From a virus: a DNA stretch of 11,121 bases. The stretch is taken from the UHGV virus genome UHGV-0151769; one strand, 5' to 3'. The notes beneath the pieces are model-generated. The model saw only the letters and a program-made list of their open reading frames with translations. It searched no databases and was not told the origin of the DNA. Shown here in pieces: positions 402 through 7,225 of this stretch (its first letter is position 1; the number at the start of each line of letters is the position of its first letter). Position numbers and translations under genes: made by a program.

Positions 402-2363
402 ATGGCATTTAAACACTATGACGTGGTCAGGGCGGCATCGCCGTCAGACCTTGCGAAACGACTGACACAAAAACTGAAGGAGGGCTGGCAGCCGTTTGGT
501 AGTCCGGTGGCCATAACGCCTTATACCCTGATGCAGGCCATTGCGGCGGAAGGTGATGTCACCACACCTGTGGTGGTGAAGCCGTCGGATGGAGAAGGCG
601 CAGTTATCAGCACCACCAGCAACCCGGAGTATTACTTTGTTGTTGCCCTGGCCGGGCAGTCAAACGGTATGGCGTATGGTGAAGGGCTTCCGCTGCCGGA
701 GACATATGACCGTCCGGACCCGCGTATTAAACAGCTGGCGCGTCGCAGCACTGTCACGCCGGGTGGTGCGTCCTGTAACTACAATGACATTATTCCTGCG
801 GACCACTGCCTGCATGATGTTCAGGATTTGAGTAAGTTTTCACACCCGAAAGCCAGCGCAGCTCAGTATGGATGCGTGGGGCAGGGATTACATATCGCGA
901 AGAAATTGTTGCCGTTTATTCCGGCGAATGCCGGTATTCTTCTGGTTCCGTGCTGCCGTGGTGGTTCTGCATTTTTGGCGGGCGATGAAGGTACCTTCAG
1001 CGAATCCACCGGCGCAAGCGAGACCTCGGCACGCTGGGGTGTTGATAAGCCACTGTACAAGGACCTGCTTACCCGTACTCAGGCCGCACTGAAGGCCAAC
1101 CCTAAAAATATTCTGCTTGCAGTGGTCTGGATGCAGGGCGAGTTTGATTTGAAACAGGGTGCATACGCCACTCAGCCGGGGCTGTTTGATTCCATGGTGG
1201 AAAAATATCGTTCTGACCTGTCGGAATTCGGAGGTCAGTGTCTCGGGGGCTCTCCGTCATCGGTTCCCTGGATTTGTGGCGACACGACCTACTACTGGAA
1301 GCAGACTTATTCTTCGCAATACGATGCGGTGTATGGTGCATACAAGACGAAATCCGCAAAAAAAATCTTCTTTGTGCCGTTTATGACGGATGAAAACGGG
1401 CGAAATGTGGGTACCAACGAGCCGTCAGAAGATCCGGATGTTGCGGATATTGGGTATTACGGAGCCGGTGGTCGAACGGACGCCAAAACCTGGACGACGG
1501 CCGACCGTAAAACGCATTTTGGATCATGGGCACGTCGTGGGATTATTTCCGACCGTCTGGCAACGGCGATTCTTGTGCATGCCGGGAGAAACGCTGAATT
1601 CATTACCGGAAAACAGCCTGATACGGTGAAGCCCACCGGACCTTCCGGTGAAGGTACGGAGAGAGAGCCGGAAGCCCCGGTCAGTAACCGAACCCTGATG
1701 AGTCTGCTGGCGTCCGGCGAAGACCTGGCATCACAGGGCTGGCGCTATTATCACAAACCGGCGAGCGGAGACAATGTTAACAAAAACATTGCTGAAGCGG
1801 TGGTCAGTGATGCGGGGGCTACGGGAGGTAAGGCCCTGCAACTGAATAAACCGGAAAACCACATCTGGTTTCTGGAGCATGATGCAGCCGGACAGGGAGT
1901 GGAGTTACTGAAGAAGGGGGGACGTGTGAGCGTACGGTTTAAGTTGCCGGGTTCACTGGTGCCGAATCAGTTTGCCCTGGGCATTTACTGGCAGTTGTCG
2001 TCCCTGCCGGAGGGAGTGACGCTGGCAGAGGAAGGCAACGACATGCTGATGTCCTTCTTTCTGCAGACGGATGCGACGAACCTGAACGCGATGCACCACA
2101 AGAAGCCGAATGCGAAGCTGGAAACGTTCGGGGTCTTTGATAACGGATGGCACACACTGGCTTTTGAGTTTGCCGGAAACAACAGCATTCAGGTGACGCC
2201 GGTACTGGATGAGAAACGGGGGACGCCGTTCACACTGGTGAAATCTCCGGCATCAGGGGCGGCGGACAAACTGCAACTGACAGGCATATCAAAGGCGGCG
2301 ACATATACGCTGCTGATTGACAGTGTGAAGGTGGAAGTGAACAACGCGGACATCGCGGCATGA
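402..2363 (+). CDS. nanS-p: Prophage NanS-p-type sialate O-acetylesterase (N-terminal DUF1737-like region, SGNH-hydrolase domain, C-terminal putative carbohydrate-binding region)
   Basis: 653-aa ORF with a strong RBS (GGGAGGA, 5 nt before the ATG). A GQSNG block near residue 85 matches the SGNH/sialate-esterase catalytic-serine motif. The N-terminus (MAFKHYDVVRAASPSDLAKRLTQKLKEGWQPFG) matches what I recall of the large ORF downstream of stx in Stx phages such as 933W L0105. Position upstream of the lysis cassette is typical. Confidence 0.8.
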   Translation: MAFKHYDVVRAASPSDLAKRLTQKLKEGWQPFGSPVAITPYTLMQAIAAEGDVTTPVVVKPSDGEGAVISTTSNPEYYFVVALAGQSNGMAYGEGLPLPETYDRPDPRIKQLARRSTVTPGGASCNYNDIIPADHCLHDVQDLSKFSHPKASAAQYGCVGQGLHIAKKLLPFIPANAGILLVPCCRGGSAFLAGDEGTFSESTGASETSARWGVDKPLYKDLLTRTQAALKANPKNILLAVVWMQGEFDLKQGAYATQPGLFDSMVEKYRSDLSEFGGQCLGGSPSSVPWICGDTTYYWKQTYSSQYDAVYGAYKTKSAKKIFFVPFMTDENGRNVGTNEPSEDPDVADIGYYGAGGRTDAKTWTTADRKTHFGSWARRGIISDRLATAILVHAGRNAEFITGKQPDTVKPTGPSGEGTEREPEAPVSNRTLMSLLASGEDLASQGWRYYHKPASGDNVNKNIAEAVVSDAGATGGKALQLNKPENHIWFLEHDAAGQGVELLKKGGRVSVRFKLPGSLVPNQFALGIYWQLSSLPEGVTLAEEGNDMLMSFFLQTDATNLNAMHHKKPNAKLETFGVFDNGWHTLAFEFAGNNSIQVTPVLDEKRGTPFTLVKSPASGAADKLQLTGISKAATYTLLIDSVKVEVNNADIAA

Positions 2364-2401
2364 TAAAAAAAGCCGCCAGCGGCAGGAATGGAAGCTGGCG
2401 G
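2364..2401 (-). terminator. A-tract plus GC hairpin just after the nanS-p stop; reads as a terminator for leftward transcription
   Basis: ATAAAAAAA followed by GCCGCCAGC / GCTGGCGG around a 13-nt loop. There is no T-tract on the + side, so rightward termination is unlikely. Confidence 0.35.
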
Positions 2402-2499
2402 AGGTAATCCCAATGGAGAATGTAAAGAAAAGATGCTTTCGACATCAATCATTTCTAAATGAAAACAGTTCTCATTGTCAACCATAACGGTAAGAAATT

Positions 2500-2682
2500 A
2501 TGACATTTATTCATCAGGTAATGCTGTACTTCTGTATGGCAGTCTGTGTTATGTATCTTCTTTCGGGTGGGTACAGGGCAGTGCGCGATTTCTGGCGCAG
2601 GCAGATTGATAAAAGGGCCGCTGAGAGAATCAGCGCCAGTCAGTCAGCCGGAAGCAAACCCGAAGATCCGCTCATTCCGTAG
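2500..2682 (+). CDS. Hypothetical small protein (60 aa) with a hydrophobic N-terminal segment
   Basis: ORF in an otherwise non-coding gap. The N-terminus (VMLYFCMAVCVMYLLSGG) is hydrophobic. The RBS is weak, so it could be spurious. Confidence 0.3.
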   Translation: MTFIHQVMLYFCMAVCVMYLLSGGYRAVRDFWRRQIDKRAAERISASQSAGSKPEDPLIP

Positions 2683-2719
2683 TCACTTTCTTGACAACAC
2701 CTTTCAACGAGAAAATCCC

Positions 2720-2965
2720 ATGTCAGAAATCACATCCCTGGTCACTGCTGAGGCAGTGAAGGAAGTCCTGCGCTCTGAAGAAGTCCTGAGCGCACTGAAA
2801 CAGAAACTCCGCCAGAACCTTGAGTCGCGTCTTGATGCAGAAGTGGATGCCATTCTGGATGAGCTGCTGGGCGTACCAGCGGTTCCGGAGCCGGAAGGTA
2901 TCGCGGGTGACGGGAGTGCTTCAGATGGCGGTGAACCCACACCTGACAGCGACATGATGATGTAA
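2720..2965 (+). CDS. Hypothetical small acidic, probably helical protein (81 aa)
   Basis: The ORF is continuous from 2546 with no obvious RBS; I chose the ATG at 2720 because the protein from MSEITSLV onward looks like a real helical domain with an acidic tail ([19 protein letters not shown]). It sits just upstream of the holin, where Stx-type phages carry small conserved ORFs. Confidence 0.5.
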
Positions 2966-3041
2966 GCCTGCGCAAGGGACCATCGGTGTGTGCCGGTGGT
3001 CTTTATATTGTTGTGAGCTTCCGGATAACGGGAGACGGGGT

Positions 3042-3257
3042 ATGTACCAGATGGAAAAAATCACAACAGGTGTGTCATACACCACGTCAGCGGTGGGAAC
3101 GGGCTACTGGTTCCTGCAGTTGCTGGACAGGGTTTCCCCGTCTCAGTGGGCGGCAATAGGCGTGCTGGGGAGTCTGCTGTTTGGGCTGCTGACGTACCTG
3201 ACTAACCTGTATTTCAAAATCAAAGAGGACCGGCGTAAGGCGGCGCGGGGAGAGTAA
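3042..3257 (+). CDS. S: Pinholin (phage 21 S21-type class II holin) with dual-start motif
   Basis: 71 aa starting MYQMEKITT (Met1 and Met4 mirror the S21 antiholin/holin pair). Two TMDs ([13 protein letters not shown] and [23 protein letters not shown]) and a basic tail ([13 protein letters not shown]). GGAG lies 7 nt upstream. Strong resemblance to phage 21 S21 as I recall it. Confidence 0.85.
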
Positions 3258-3261
3258 AGTG

Positions 3262-3582
3262 ATGAATAAAAAATATGAACTGGTTGTTAAGGGGATAAAT
3301 AATTACGGGGATAAGGTTACTGTTACTGTGAAGCCGGAAGGTGACGGGCAAGCGTCGCTGTTGTTGCCAGATGTGGCGATTAGTCTTGACCGTACTGAAG
3401 GTGCCACGCTGGAGTTTTACGAAGCTGAGGCGAAAAAGCAGGCGAAGCAGTTTTTCATGGATGTTGCTGCCGGGTTATGTGAATGGAACGAACCGTTGCC
3501 GGAAAAGCGCCCCGTAGCTACCGGGAAGAATTACTTGTTCTCTGAAGATGCCGCCGTCAACACTGCGGTCAGAAAAAGATGA
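3262..3582 (+). CDS. Hypothetical protein (moron ORF A, about 106 aa); unknown function
   Basis: Starts 4 nt after the holin stop (GTG at 3259 or ATG at 3262) with GGGAGAG 7 nt upstream. Predicted soluble and charged, with no motif I recognise. Visibly more AT-rich than flanking lysis genes (by eye, not computed). Confidence 0.55.
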   Translation: MNKKYELVVKGINNYGDKVTVTVKPEGDGQASLLLPDVAISLDRTEGATLEFYEAEAKKQAKQFFMDVAAGLCEWNEPLPEKRPVATGKNYLFSEDAAVNTAVRKR

Positions 3583-4111
3583 TGTTGAATCACGTATTGA
3601 AAAACTGGAGAGCTACGTCGTTGAGCTGAATAAGAAATGGTCGATATTGGTGCCTTCTGGCGATGAAAAGCAGTTTGCTGCGTTTGACGATTATTGTCGG
3701 AAAGTGATGAGCAGAAATCTCGCAGAGTGTTTCAGTATTCATAATGATAATTTCAGTGAGCTGGAATGGGAGTGTAACCGGCCATCCTTTGTTGTATCCG
3801 GTGATGCTGGGAAAATAACCATCTCAGAAAATGGGAAAGTAACACCTCCATCGCACCAGCACAGTGAGGAGCTCATTGAATTTGCCATTGATTACCTGAA
3901 GAACAATAAAAAGCAGGGGCTGATGAAGCGCGTTGGCCGTTGCATGGGATATCTTCAGGTAGCCGCTGAGATTGAAGCGCTGGCCAGTGGTGCTGATAAG
4001 GATGCAATTGTGCGGGAGGCTCTTCTTCGTGATTTTAATACTCCACCCTTTAAAAAAGTGCCGGCTTACTGGCTTCATCCGGGGCTGACTTATCTTAAAG
4101 TGCGTATTTAG
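3548..4111 (+). CDS. Hypothetical protein (moron ORF B, 187 aa); unknown function
   Basis: ORF in the +1 frame relative to ORF A, overlapping it by 35 nt. No TMD, no signal peptide, no recognisable catalytic motif. AT-rich. Ends 36 nt before the endolysin start. The true start is uncertain; this frame is open from 3518. Confidence 0.55.
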   Translation: MPPSTLRSEKDDVESRIEKLESYVVELNKKWSILVPSGDEKQFAAFDDYCRKVMSRNLAECFSIHNDNFSELEWECNRPSFVVSGDAGKITISENGKVTPPSHQHSEELIEFAIDYLKNNKKQGLMKRVGRCMGYLQVAAEIEALASGADKDAIVREALLRDFNTPPFKKVPAYWLHPGLTYLKVRI

Positions 4112-4147
4112 TGGGCCAGGGACAGCGGCTGAATATTTAATATATCC

Positions 4148-4681
4148 ATGAACACCAAAATCAAATACGGCCTGTCGGCTGCCGTTCTGGCGCTGATTGC
4201 CGCTGGTGCGCCTGCGCCTGACATTCTCGACCAGTTTCTGGATGAAAAGGAAGGCAACCACACCACAGCATACCGTGATGGTGCAGGTATCTGGACCATC
4301 TGCCGTGGTGCCATCATGGTGGATGGCAAACCTGTCGTTCCGGGCATGAAGTTGTCGAAGGAAAAATGCGACCAGGTTAACGCCATTGAGCGTGATAAAG
4401 CGCTGGCGTGGGTGGAGAAAAACATCAGAGTGCCGCTGACCGAACCCCAGAAAGCGGGGATCGCGTCATTCTGTCCGTACAACATTGGTCCCGGTAAGTG
4501 TTTCCCGTCGACGTTTTACAGACGAATTAATGCTGGTGATCGAAAAGGTGCCTGCGAAGCGATTCGCTGGTGGATTAAGGACGGTGGCAGAGACTGCCGT
4601 ATTCGTTCAAACAACTGTTACGGTCAGGTATCCCGTCGTGACCAGGAGAGCGCGCTGGCGTGCTGGGGTATCGACAGATAA
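4148..4681 (+). CDS. R: SAR endolysin (T4-lysozyme-family muramidase with N-terminal signal-arrest-release domain)
   Basis: 177 aa. The N-terminal Gly/Ala-rich weakly hydrophobic segment (YGLSAAVLALIAAGAPAP) is a typical SAR domain. The catalytic triad is spaced as in T4 lysozyme and R21: E, then D 9 residues later, then T 6 residues after that (EGNHTTAYRDGAGIWT). Paired with a pinholin. Confidence 0.85.
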   Translation: MNTKIKYGLSAAVLALIAAGAPAPDILDQFLDEKEGNHTTAYRDGAGIWTICRGAIMVDGKPVVPGMKLSKEKCDQVNAIERDKALAWVEKNIRVPLTEPQKAGIASFCPYNIGPGKCFPSTFYRRINAGDRKGACEAIRWWIKDGGRDCRIRSNNCYGQVSRRDQESALACWGIDR

Positions 4682-4837
4682 GCAGAATATTTTGCTGAAA
4701 AATGAGGAATGGCCACGCGGGCGGATAACACGAAATCCTGCGAACTGGCGAAACGTAAGTGAATAAAAGTAAAAACCCCGTTTGTTGGCACCAAGCGAGG
4801 TTTTGTGTTTCTGACCTTGAGTAAGGCAAGGGAGAAC

Positions 4838-5020
4838 ATGGCGAAGTGTAAACGAATTCTGTTGAGGTTGACTATGAAAAATGGCCTTGAACTGAAAGCG
4901 CCTGTAACTGATGACATCAGCAGAGCACTGGCTTTTGCCATTAAGTGGGTGGCGGTCGGTGTTGCTGTGTCCCCGATGCTGTATGGGCTGGCAAAACTGG
5001 TCATTGCGTTGAAATCGTGA
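4838..5020 (+). CDS. Hypothetical small membrane protein (60 aa; alternative start at 4874 gives 48 aa)
   Basis: Basic N-terminus ([12 protein letters not shown]) followed by a hydrophobic segment ([28 protein letters not shown]). An RBS is present for both candidate starts (GGGAG before 4838; GAGG 6 nt before 4874). Confidence 0.4.
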
Positions 5021-5034
5021 AGGGAGGATTAAGC

Positions 5035-5166
5035 ATGTCAGACAAACTCATAACGCTGGCGAAGATCCTCTGTGTAATTGTCGGCATTTCATTTTCACTA
5101 ATGCTGGTTGCTCTTTTTCTTTCCATGGCCTGGATGATGTTGTCTTCGTCGGGGTTGCTGGGGTGA
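5035..5166 (+). CDS. Hypothetical small single-TMD membrane protein (43 aa)
   Basis: Strong RBS (AGGGAGGA) 6 nt before the ATG. One clear TMD ([26 protein letters not shown]). The stop overlaps the Rz start (GTGA), suggesting translational coupling. Confidence 0.5.
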
Positions 5167-5636
5167 ACATAAACCGAATGCTTTCCGCGTTTATCGTTAT
5201 TCTGCTGGTGGCCTGTGGTGCGCTGTGGATGGCAACAGACCATTACCGTGATAACGCGATTACCTACAAAGCGCAGCGCGATAACAAAGCCAGTGAACTG
5301 AAGCTGGCGAACGCAACCATTACTGATATGCAGGTGCGCCAGCGCGATGTTGCTGCGCTCGATGCAAAATACTCGAGGGAATTAGCCGATGCGAGAGCTG
5401 AAAATGAAACTCTTCGCGCTGACGTTGCCGCTGGTCGTAAGCGCCTGCGGATCAACGCCACCTGTCCAGGCTCCGTGCGTGAAGCCCCCACCACCTCCGG
5501 CGTGGATAATGCAACCGGCCCCCAACTGGCAGACACCGTTACACGGGATTATTTCACCCTCAGAGAGCGGCTGATGACGATGCACAAGCAACTGGAAGGG
5601 GCACAGGACTATATCCGCACTCAGTGCCTGAAATAA
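5163..5636 (+). CDS. Rz: Rz i-spanin (inner-membrane spanin subunit)
   Basis: N-terminal TMD, then a coiled-coil region closely resembling lambda Rz as I recall it ([63 protein letters not shown]). Start is GTG 5163 or ATG 5178. Confidence 0.85.
5389..5574 (+). CDS. Rz1: Rz1 o-spanin (outer-membrane lipoprotein) nested in the +1 frame of Rz
   Basis: Entirely inside Rz in another frame. Signal peptide with lipobox (LPLVVSAC) and a proline-rich mature part ([30 protein letters not shown]) matching lambda Rz1. Confidence 0.8.
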
Positions 5637-5946
5637 GTTTTGTTGATGCGCCGTATCGTCGCTATATTCCCTCATTAACAGAGACCGCAGCCCGACAGGG
5701 AGACTCCTCTGCGCGAGTGTGCGGGGATAATTAAAAACGATGCACACCGGGTTTTTACCGCGTTAATGATTCGCGGGTTTATCCCGGTGCGATGGTGGAA
5801 GAAACAGGAAGCTGTATTACAGAAAGTGCTACTACTGTATCCCGATGCGATGTATGTAATGTGAGTCAGATAATGGCACAGGATGTGGTGATGTGGCAGT
5901 CTGGAACACAGGATATATTGTCAGAATAAGACCCGTAGGAATAAAA

Positions 5947-6273
5947 ATGAAAAGACGCCTTTTACTACTTTTTCTGTTATCTGTCCTGGCAGTGGGATGC
6001 TCACAGCAAAAAGCTGATGAGCCCCGGCAATTAGTGACGGTGTATCCACGATATCCGGAATATGCTGCAGCAAATTATATCAAGGGGCTGGTTGAGGTTA
6101 AGTTCGATATTGGTGCTGATGGGACTGTGACACGGATCGTTTTTCTCCGCTCAGAGCCTCATAATTTGTTTCGTGATGAAGTGGTGAAGGCCATGGCGAA
6201 ATGGCGATTTGAAAAGAATCGCCCCTGTCAGGGAGTGAAGAGACAATTTATCTTTACGCCGTCACGTCCCTGA
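5947..6273 (+). CDS. Prophage lipoprotein with a TonB C-terminal-like domain (108 aa); probable moron
   Basis: AGGA 6 nt upstream. Signal peptide with lipobox (LLSVLAVGC). The C-terminal part (GLVEVKFDIGADGTVTRIVFLRSEPHNLFRDEVVKAMAKWRFE) lines up block by block with the E. coli TonB C-terminal domain as I recall it ([43 protein letters not shown]). Confidence 0.7.
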   Translation: MKRRLLLLFLLSVLAVGCSQQKADEPRQLVTVYPRYPEYAAANYIKGLVEVKFDIGADGTVTRIVFLRSEPHNLFRDEVVKAMAKWRFEKNRPCQGVKRQFIFTPSRP

Positions 6274-6395
6274 TGCTTCCAGGTAGAGAGGGGCTGGACG
6301 CAGGAGAAAAATGAAAGAGCCAGCGGTTATATTTTTGTCATGGCTGACGAGGAATGATGGAAGAAGGCGTTGTATGCCACACAACGCCTCACTGT

Positions 6396-6575
6396 TCATT
6401 TCTTCTTTTTCTCTGGTGGAACCCGATGAATAAGAGTTGCACTGGTTTCCGATGAGATGGCGATATACTCGGGCAAAGTATGCTGGCAGTTTTCCAACTG
6501 GTCAAAAATACCTGCTCTCGTCTGTTGCAATGCCTGCAGCATGCGGCGGCAATGCGCCTTGCTTTTACTAACCAT
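6396..6575 (-). CDS. Hypothetical small protein (59 aa counted from the internal Met that has an RBS)
   Basis: The leftward ORF is open from 6749, but only the ATG at 6575 has a good RBS (AGGAAGGAAAG). Ends in a lysine run (PPEKKKK). No function recognised. Confidence 0.25.
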   Translation of the reverse strand: MVSKSKAHCRRMLQALQQTRAGIFDQLENCQHTLPEYIAISSETSATLIHRVPPEKKKK

Positions 6576-6636
6576 CTTTCCTTCCTCTATCAGTCGCTGC
6601 GTGAACTCATCATGTAATACCAGGTAAATGCGGATG

Positions 6637-6888
6637 TTATCGGTTTTGGCTACGCAGCATAGTACAAAACGGACAGGTGCATCCCGGGACGGGGGAGGCG
6701 TCACATGTCCCTGTGATGGTTGTTCCGGGTAATGCACTGTGTGGGGCATAAAAATGTCCGATAATTTTACTTTCTACCGCAGTTAGTTGATTCGTTGGTC
6801 CTGGTAGCACATTGGGCGAGGATTTAAATGCCAGGCAACTGAAGGATGATGTTGCAAGGGAGATAGCGAGAATATTTCTGATTTTCAT
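6637..6888 (-). CDS. Hypothetical small secreted, Cys-rich protein (83 aa)
   Basis: Leftward ORF with GAGG 9 nt upstream of the ATG. Signal-peptide-like N-terminus (MKIRNILAISLATSSFSCLA). Overlaps the next leftward ORF frame out of phase; may be one arm of a frameshifted gene. Confidence 0.3.
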   Translation of the reverse strand: MKIRNILAISLATSSFSCLAFKSSPNVLPGPTNQLTAVESKIIGHFYAPHSALPGTTITGTCDASPVPGCTCPFCTMLRSQNR

Positions 6889-7036
6889 TTGATGATGCCT
6901 CTGTGTGAAATGACGGTAAACGACGCACTTGTGCCGGCACATAATAGCAAGCACCATAATAGATCAGATTCGATTCTTGCTGTAAGTGATAATCATTCTC
7001 GTTTTCGGGTCCTTTCCGTCGATCCAACAGGTTACG

Positions 7037-7048
7037 GGGCGGCGACCT
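7037..7048. other. cosN: lambda-type 12-nt cohesive-end sequence
   Basis: Exact string GGGCGGCGACCT, preceded by ACAGGTTACG (lambda right end) and followed by CGCGGGTTTTCGCTATTTATGAAAATTTTCCGG (lambda left end), all as I recall the lambda termini. Confidence 0.9.
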
Positions 7049-7225
7049 CGCGGGTTTTCGCTATTTATGAAAATTTTCCGGTTTAAGGCGTTTCCGTTCT
7101 TCTTCGTCATAACTTAATGTTTTTATTTAAAATACCCTCTGAAAAGAAAGGAAACGACAGGTGCTGAAAACGAGCTTTTGGGCCTCTGTCGTTTCCTTTC
7201 TCTGTTTTTGGCCGTGGAATGAACA
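7049..7225 (+). promoter_or_regulatory. cosB region (terminase small-subunit binding sites and IHF site) between cosN and Nu1
   Basis: Sequence matches the lambda left-end leader as I recall it. It contains the inverted pair AAAGGAAACGACAG (7147-7160) and CTGTCGTTTCCTTT (7186-7199), consistent with R-element repeats. Individual R1/R2/R3/I1 boundaries are not assigned. Confidence 0.7.

Follow-up and report, generated by a model that had tools for sequence, protein, structure and literature searches.

A long-form YdfR-family gene split by a 41-bp deletion in the lysis cassette of a lambdoid Escherichia coli prophage

Positions 3262-4111 of the prophage analysed here proved to be a single accessory gene of the YdfR family, of the long 296-aa form (phrog_1085), at the usual place of this family between the holin and lysozyme genes. 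The two ORFs that can be read there, originally predicted to form a two-gene system, are collinear halves of this one gene and are split by a private 41-bp deletion. The locus is a known, functionally obscure family in a rare broken allele rather than an undescribed two-ORF system. Taken as a whole, a split long-form YdfR-family gene in the lysis cassette, whose product would act as a late protein, is considered the likely explanation of the segment.

The window is the whole stretch of DNA analysed, 11,121 nucleotides of the UHGV virus genome UHGV-0151769. According to its ORFs and its Pfam and PHROG matches, it represents the start of the late operon of a lambdoid, Stx-phage-like E. coli prophage. 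Its features are as follows.

402-2363, nanS-p-like sialate esterase gene (DUF1737, SASA and DUF6645 domains)
2720-2965, DUF826 gene
3042-3257, plus strand, S21-type class II holin (pinholin) gene with a dual start (MYQM...); PF04971, E 7e-33; phrog_9876 and phrog_20, holin
3259-4111, segment under study, with two ORFs
3262-3515, plus strand, N-terminal DUF1327/YdfR domain, the in-frame part of ORF1; PF07041; phrog_1085 positions 1-87
3515/3516, unstranded, deletion joint; lacks 41 bp (AATTTTAGAGGCGCAGGATGTGTTGATAACCTACAAAGGAA) that ATCC 25922 and other genomes have
3516-3582, plus strand, out-of-frame tail of ORF1 (ATGKNYLFSEDAAVNTAVRKR, then stop), from translation against the intact allele
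3548-4111, plus strand, ORF2, the C-terminal 187 aa of the ancestral gene; phrog_1085 positions 110-296, E 6e-119
3770-4108, plus strand, conserved globular C-domain with a three-strand meander and four helices; motifs GRCMGxLQxAAEIE and NPPFK..P..W..PG..YLK.RI
4148-4681, plus strand, lysozyme gene (SAR-type); PF00959, E 2e-24; Ala/Gly-rich, weakly hydrophobic N-terminus; E-X8-D-X5-T triad
4805-5020, 71-aa ORF between the endolysin and Rz genes; phrog_1115, unknown function
3' of the 71-aa ORF, Rz gene with embedded Rz1
5947-6273, lipoprotein-like ORF with a TonB C-terminal domain; PF03544, E 7e-13
from 7226, Nu1, then the large terminase subunit, W and portal genes, at the end of the gene order

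Apart from the split gene, the late region appears intact in its ORFs and Pfam matches. The esterase gene encodes 653 aa and is unbroken in the window; the near-identical copy in E. coli ATCC 25922 is annotated as frameshifted. A strong terminator-like hairpin (2975-3004; 13 pairs, 6 of them G-C) lies about 40 nt 5' of the holin start, and a terminator is annotated at the corresponding place in phage 434. This hairpin is presumably read through by the Q-modified polymerase. In the lysozyme, the hydropathy maximum of 1.74 falls at residue 9, and the catalytic-type triad was read off the sequence. The 71-aa ORF has a hydrophobic C-terminal stretch (hydropathy 1.88), indicating a small, probably membrane, protein inside the lysis cassette. 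The TonB-domain ORF occupies the position of bor in lambda, and its copy in ATCC 25922 is named 'TonB family protein' in RefSeq. Near-identity to ATCC 25922, to a metagenome scaffold (L004) and to a further contig (L005) stops at position 7081, shortly before Nu1; scaffold L004 simply ends there. Position 7081 may be a mosaic joint between the lysis and packaging modules. The GC content of the 6.3-7.2 kb stretch is also low.

The positions and sizes of the two ORFs (about 106 and 187 aa) and the spacings on either side (4 and 36 nt) were found exactly as originally described. ORF1 extends from ATG 3262, or from GTG 3259, to 3582, giving 106-107 aa. The ATG is the likelier start, lying 4 nt past the holin stop at 3257 with a Shine-Dalgarno sequence (GGAG) 9 nt upstream. 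ORF2 overlaps ORF1 by 35 nt, and 36 nt separate its end from the lysozyme ATG (4148); inspection of the sequence upstream of its start, ATG 3548, indicates an internal Met codon with no usable Shine-Dalgarno sequence. The predictions that both products are soluble and that the segment is richer in AT than its neighbours were also borne out. The 19-aa hydropathy maxima are only 0.59 for the ORF1 product and 0.75 for that of ORF2, compared to 1.7 for the holin and the endolysin N-terminus, and the hydropathy scan revealed no membrane-spanning or signal segment in either. GC content is 46.5% over 3259-4111, compared to 52.5% for the window, 55.1% for the holin gene and 54.3% for the lysozyme gene, and only 2.5% of all 853-bp windows are lower. 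In agreement with the expected lack of a terminator, the hairpin scan yielded no convincing intrinsic terminator in the segment, only a single weak hairpin at 4070-4087, against a background of 8 such sites in the region where 3.9 are expected by chance. The placement of the segment is consistent with expression from the Q-dependent late transcript. Minus-strand ORFs that overlap the segment, including one annotated as 'DUF1823-containing' in PhiR5_1, have no Pfam support and were treated as spurious.

Neither ORF had been thought to carry a recognisable motif. ORF1, however, matches PF07041 (DUF1327/YdfR) with 129.4 bits (gathering cut-off 25; E 6e-38) over profile positions 1-86 of 93, and it occupies the slot between a class II holin and a lysozyme. 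Nor is the segment unrecognised, as the same gene is a 'YdfR family protein' in RefSeq, DUF1327 in Pfam and phrog_1085 in PHROGs, and ydfR lies at the same place in E. coli K-12. The 296 positions of phrog_1085 are matched collinearly, by ORF1 at 1-87 (E 4e-47) and by ORF2 at 110-296. The two ORFs thus encode successive parts of a single protein; the whole profile is covered in order, but a single uninterrupted reading frame is absent in the window. Full-length 296-aa homologues named 'YdfR family protein' are common in the protein collection (P0001-P0030).

The cause of the split can be seen by comparison with ATCC 25922. In a global alignment the DNA is 100% identical apart from 41 extra bases at 3515/3516, and restoring these bases yields one ORF of 296 aa. 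The idea of a fusion had been raised in the original prediction. Window positions 3000-4200 match more than 25 complete E. coli genomes at 100% identity, always in two pieces (1,242 bases against 1,201). The ends of the deletion share at most 1 nt of microhomology and have no flanking repeats. Loss of the 41 bp removes part of a conserved linker, shifts the frame and brings a new TAG into the downstream frame. As a result, ORF1 retains the whole DUF1327 domain followed by 21 nonsense residues, and ORF2 is left as an orphaned C-terminal part. The Pfam and phrog_1085 matches of ORF1 run out at about residue 87-94, and the tail lies outside the family sequence. At the end of ORF1 (3574-3582) the codons AAA AGA TGA would allow the Lys tRNA to slip by +1 ahead of the rare AGA, into the ORF2 frame, and give a 282-aa fusion. 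This idea is speculative, and programmed frameshifting here was counted as coincidence because in the intact allele these bases are merely read in frame.

The ancestral 296-aa protein consists of the N-terminal DUF1327 domain, the conserved linker (ILEAQ.V.ITYKGKLPGRIT.SLK.PP), a helical hairpin and a globular C-domain of 113 aa. In the structural model of ORF2, residues 5-62 form the hairpin with moderate confidence, and residues 75-187 form the globular domain, which is modelled confidently (pLDDT 90.5, pTM 0.83). Invariant residues are concentrated in its two motifs. The dN/dS of the ORF2 region is 0.27-0.34 against three homologues, indicating purifying selection, and the region therefore evolves as a real protein. 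ORF2 gave nothing meaningful against Pfam, NCBIfam and PADLOC. Searches of PDB sequences with profiles of both domains gave chance matches only (E >= 0.09). Structural comparison of the C-domain yielded only chance or generic helical matches in the PDB and none in BFVD, and the domain has no recognisable fold or motif that points to an activity.

The family is very small. An exhaustive HMMER search of 1.84 billion representatives recovered 27 relatives, all unannotated. The most distant are 31-40% identical in the C-domain and keep both domains, and a nucleotide search of complete E. coli genomes gave no match to them. At the N-terminus they are similar to DUF1327 (hhalign probability 80%, E 1.4e-5), and 85% of one of them can be aligned (tblastn) to the phage 86 protein, across both domains. 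Judging by these sequences, the two-domain layout is old. The genes of the distant relatives lie downstream of the Q antiterminator and adjoin the lysis genes, upstream of a holin that belongs to a different family in two cases. The conserved location is thus early in the late operon beside the lysis genes, and not specifically between S and R.

Concerning function, all PHROG matches are labelled 'unknown function', NCBIfam and PADLOC assign none, and there was no PADLOC match below E 0.02. A literature search on DUF1327, on ydfR together with holin, and on genes between holin and endolysin found no functional study besides that of Göpel et al. (RNA Biol 2026; PMC13232886). There, K-12 YdfR was recovered in two-hybrid screens with the N-terminal catalytic half of RNase E as its partner, and it co-purified on StrepTactin with Rne1-598. 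The interaction surface lies within YdfR residues 1-72, and RNA co-purifies with the protein. YdfR overproduction altered few transcripts and was non-toxic (PMC13232886). ORF1 is 47% identical to K-12 YdfR over 78 aa (E 1e-22), across the interaction region; RNase E binding is known for the K-12 protein alone.

By analogy with K-12 YdfR, a mechanism can be proposed tentatively. Proteins of the family would be soluble and cytoplasmic, and would be produced late in infection along with the lysis proteins. Their DUF1327 domain would dock onto the catalytic half of host RNase E, as is reported for residues 1-72 of K-12 YdfR, and this docking could adjust the turnover of RNA at that stage. Oligomerisation or a second activity would then come from the variable C-terminal modules. 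Since natural short forms of 103-116 aa exist, ORF1 of this prophage could still be able to dock. ORF2 is probably poorly made or not made, as its start has no usable Shine-Dalgarno sequence. If translated, it might still function in the manner of a natural free-standing form, since it starts 8 residues upstream of the start of the free-standing C-domain proteins described below.

The first alternative is that the locus in this prophage is a dead pseudogene in which neither ORF does anything. The frameshift with its nonsense tail and the poor start of ORF2 are as expected for such a gene, and PGAP marks such loci as pseudogenes. Other broken alleles are also known. One of them (P0146, with 20 cluster members in Logan assemblies) arose independently by a one-base slip in AAAGGAAAG within the linker, and its product is 107 aa long with a different nonsense tail. 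However, ORF1 retains a complete DUF1327 domain and a ribosome-binding site, it resembles the natural short forms, among them K-12 YdfR with its interaction surface in the first 72 residues, and the remaining late region appears intact. A wholly inactive locus is possible, though on this evidence we doubt it.

The occupancy of the holin/endolysin junction in other phages places the split gene in context. In the Qin prophage of K-12 the order is essQ (holin), ydfR and rrrQ (lysozyme); ydfR also starts 4 nt after the holin, and its stop overlaps the rrrQ start. YdfR-family genes occupy the same site in the functional phages BP-4795 (114 aa), 2H10 (183 aa), PhiR5_1 (211 aa), Stx1_14040 (263 aa) and Stx2_95 (329 aa). 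In phages 434 and PA28 the site is empty and the endolysin comes straight after the holin. Within the phage collection, an S21-type holin is present in 434 records and a DUF1327 domain in 101 (about 23%), leaving about 77% of the holin records without the gene. Wherever both coordinates are listed, DUF1327 starts 4-8 nt past the holin. Five records of this collection contain the full C-terminal part of ORF2, and a further 15 contain its helical-hairpin part. Elsewhere among E. coli prophages, the C-terminal part exists as a free-standing protein of 213 or 216 aa right after the holin, beginning 8 residues downstream of the ORF2 start. In such loci (L011-L017), what comes after the free-standing protein is a DUF1327 fragment of 75 aa and/or an ORF of 95-104 aa, called on the opposite strand, that has no Pfam match. 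A partial phage record that ends in a YdfR-family gene beside a lysozyme (ON470600.1, L022) was considered as the same phage as the window and rejected, because its layout and sequence differ.

The states seen at the junction are thus an empty site, YdfR-family genes of 103, 114, 183, 211, 263, 296 or 329 aa, and the free-standing C-domain, and the site seems to have been rearranged repeatedly. The junction is a genuine variable site, as had been proposed, and it is filled by variants of one family rather than by arbitrary cargo. The view that the segment is accessory and not core also agrees with its absence from 434, PA28 and about 77% of the phage records with this holin. The premise that a pinholin gene is normally followed directly by its endolysin holds for about three quarters of the records with the same holin, but not for the roughly 23% that carry DUF1327. 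The family is named but not functionally characterised, and it is not universally present at this position; therefore, the original interpretation is regarded as partly supported.

The close association with S and R could mean that the YdfR-family protein regulates lysis timing by acting on the pinholin or the SAR endolysin. The gene is tightly packed with both, at 4 nt after the holin stop here and with the stop overlapping rrrQ in Qin, and it always adjoins lysis genes, even in the distant relatives. A ydfR mutant was also among the hits of a screen for envelope integrity (Paradis-Bleau 2014, cited in PMC13232886). The K-12 envelope phenotype, however, is suspected of being, and could be, a polar effect on the downstream rrrQ lysozyme. 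Moreover, the protein is soluble, while its supposed targets, the pinholin and the tethered SAR endolysin, work in or at the membrane. The gene is missing from about 77% of phages with the same holin, with R directly after S in those checked, and the distant relatives lie upstream of holins from a different family. Neither a transmembrane or signal segment nor a match to a lysis-category PHROG, Pfam or NCBIfam entry was found. A timing role is accordingly considered unlikely. A more ambitious form of the preferred reading would make the family a modular class, in which the DUF1327 domain serves as the RNase E dock and swappable C-terminal modules, including the orphan 113-aa domain that could also work as a free-standing protein, join it in retuning RNA decay or coupling it to lysis during the final minutes of infection, with the split gene as a viable two-piece version. 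This extension is likewise given a low probability.

The split itself is a private and rare allele, as the joint is absent from complete genomes and IMG/VR and is known from one scaffold only. None of the 5,426 complete E. coli genomes searched was matched by a 56-base query centred on the joint, and the exact 34-base joint had no match in IMG/VR. A 200-base query across the joint was matched over at least 80% in 502 of the complete E. coli genomes, and among the matches listed all were in two pieces separated by the 41 extra bases. Only one contig on record, an ENA metagenome scaffold (L004) from short reads, encodes the exact 106-aa product of ORF1; it is 99.94% identical to window positions 447-7081, with the same joint and 4 differences over 6.6 kb. 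Other records of the 187-aa ORF2 are mostly contigs that begin inside the gene. Scaffold L003, which seemed to offer a third arrangement, was discarded as an N-gapped chimera of several prophage copies.

Such rarity raises the question of whether the 41 bp were lost only in assembly or sequencing, with an intact 296-aa gene in the source genome. Besides the missing matches and the short-read origin of the sole other record, prophage paralogues are seen to break assemblies within this gene (contig ends in L005-L010). But exactly the same joint occurs in two records that differ at 4 positions, and a clean loss of 41 bp without flanking repeats is untypical of assembler error. An artefact is therefore thought improbable, even more so than a role in lysis timing.

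The least tenable explanation, that two separate co-operating genes form an undescribed cargo system for abortive infection, superinfection exclusion or anti-defence expressed at lysis, can point to the two ORFs being present as described, to the low GC and to the C-domain occurring elsewhere as a free-standing protein of 213-216 aa right after the holin, sometimes beside a DUF1327 fragment, but it is largely refuted by the collinearity of both ORFs with one 296-position family and with one 296-aa ORF in otherwise identical DNA, by the single other record of the split, by the lack of a ribosome-binding site for ORF2 and by the lack of any PADLOC or NCBIfam match. Nothing was found to support a defence role.

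The split long-form gene shares with K-12 YdfR (P76160, PF07041) the N-terminal domain, the slot between a class II holin and a lysozyme and the 4-nt spacing after the holin. Unlike the K-12 protein, a short form of 103 aa that ends in an unrelated tail, it derives from the 296-aa long form, which also has the helical hairpin and the globular domain, and its frame is shifted. It is collinear over its whole length with phrog_1085 and with the 296-aa protein of ATCC 25922, and the DNA outside the deletion is 100% identical; in contrast to that form, the absence of 41 bp breaks its frame into ORFs of 106 and 187 aa. The longer orf5-type proteins of Stx phages 86 and Stx2_95 are related to the ATCC 25922 form.

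Several phage proteins target RNase E, among them T4 Srd, the T7 gp0.7 kinase and phiKZ Dip, and Srd binds the N-terminal catalytic half of the enzyme. If the YdfR interaction (PMC13232886) holds in infection, the family would add another phage RNase E binder, directed at the N-terminal half like Srd. The YdfR-family gene is unrelated in sequence to Srd, gp0.7 and Dip (Dip is part of the PDB, where profile searches gave nothing), and unlike them it would be expressed late with the lysis genes and not early. The gene also resembles the morons of lambdoid late operons between Q and the lysis genes (stx, nanS-p, bor, lom) in its presence/absence variation at a fixed site, in a GC content below that of its flanks and in its location early in the late operon next to a nanS-p-like esterase. 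Classic morons usually come with a promoter and a terminator of their own and are active in the lysogen. Unlike these, the gene in the window has neither and is packed tightly into the lysis cassette.

As a discovery, the segment carries little weight, since Pfam, PHROGs and RefSeq already have entries for the family, E. coli K-12 carries a member, and the appearance of two ORFs here is due to a rare deletion. Nevertheless, the family resides inside the lysis cassette of roughly a quarter of phages with an S21-type holin, many Stx phages among them, with no phage phenotype assigned to it. The binding of RNase E, reported in 2026, is the sole experimental lead on the family, and its C-terminal domain stands without a structural relative in the libraries searched. 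The residual value of the locus therefore lies in the RNase E link, the modular C-termini and the orphan-fold domain. The natural series of empty, short, long and split genes, together with the C-domain alone, provides ready material for a genetic test of the role of the family.
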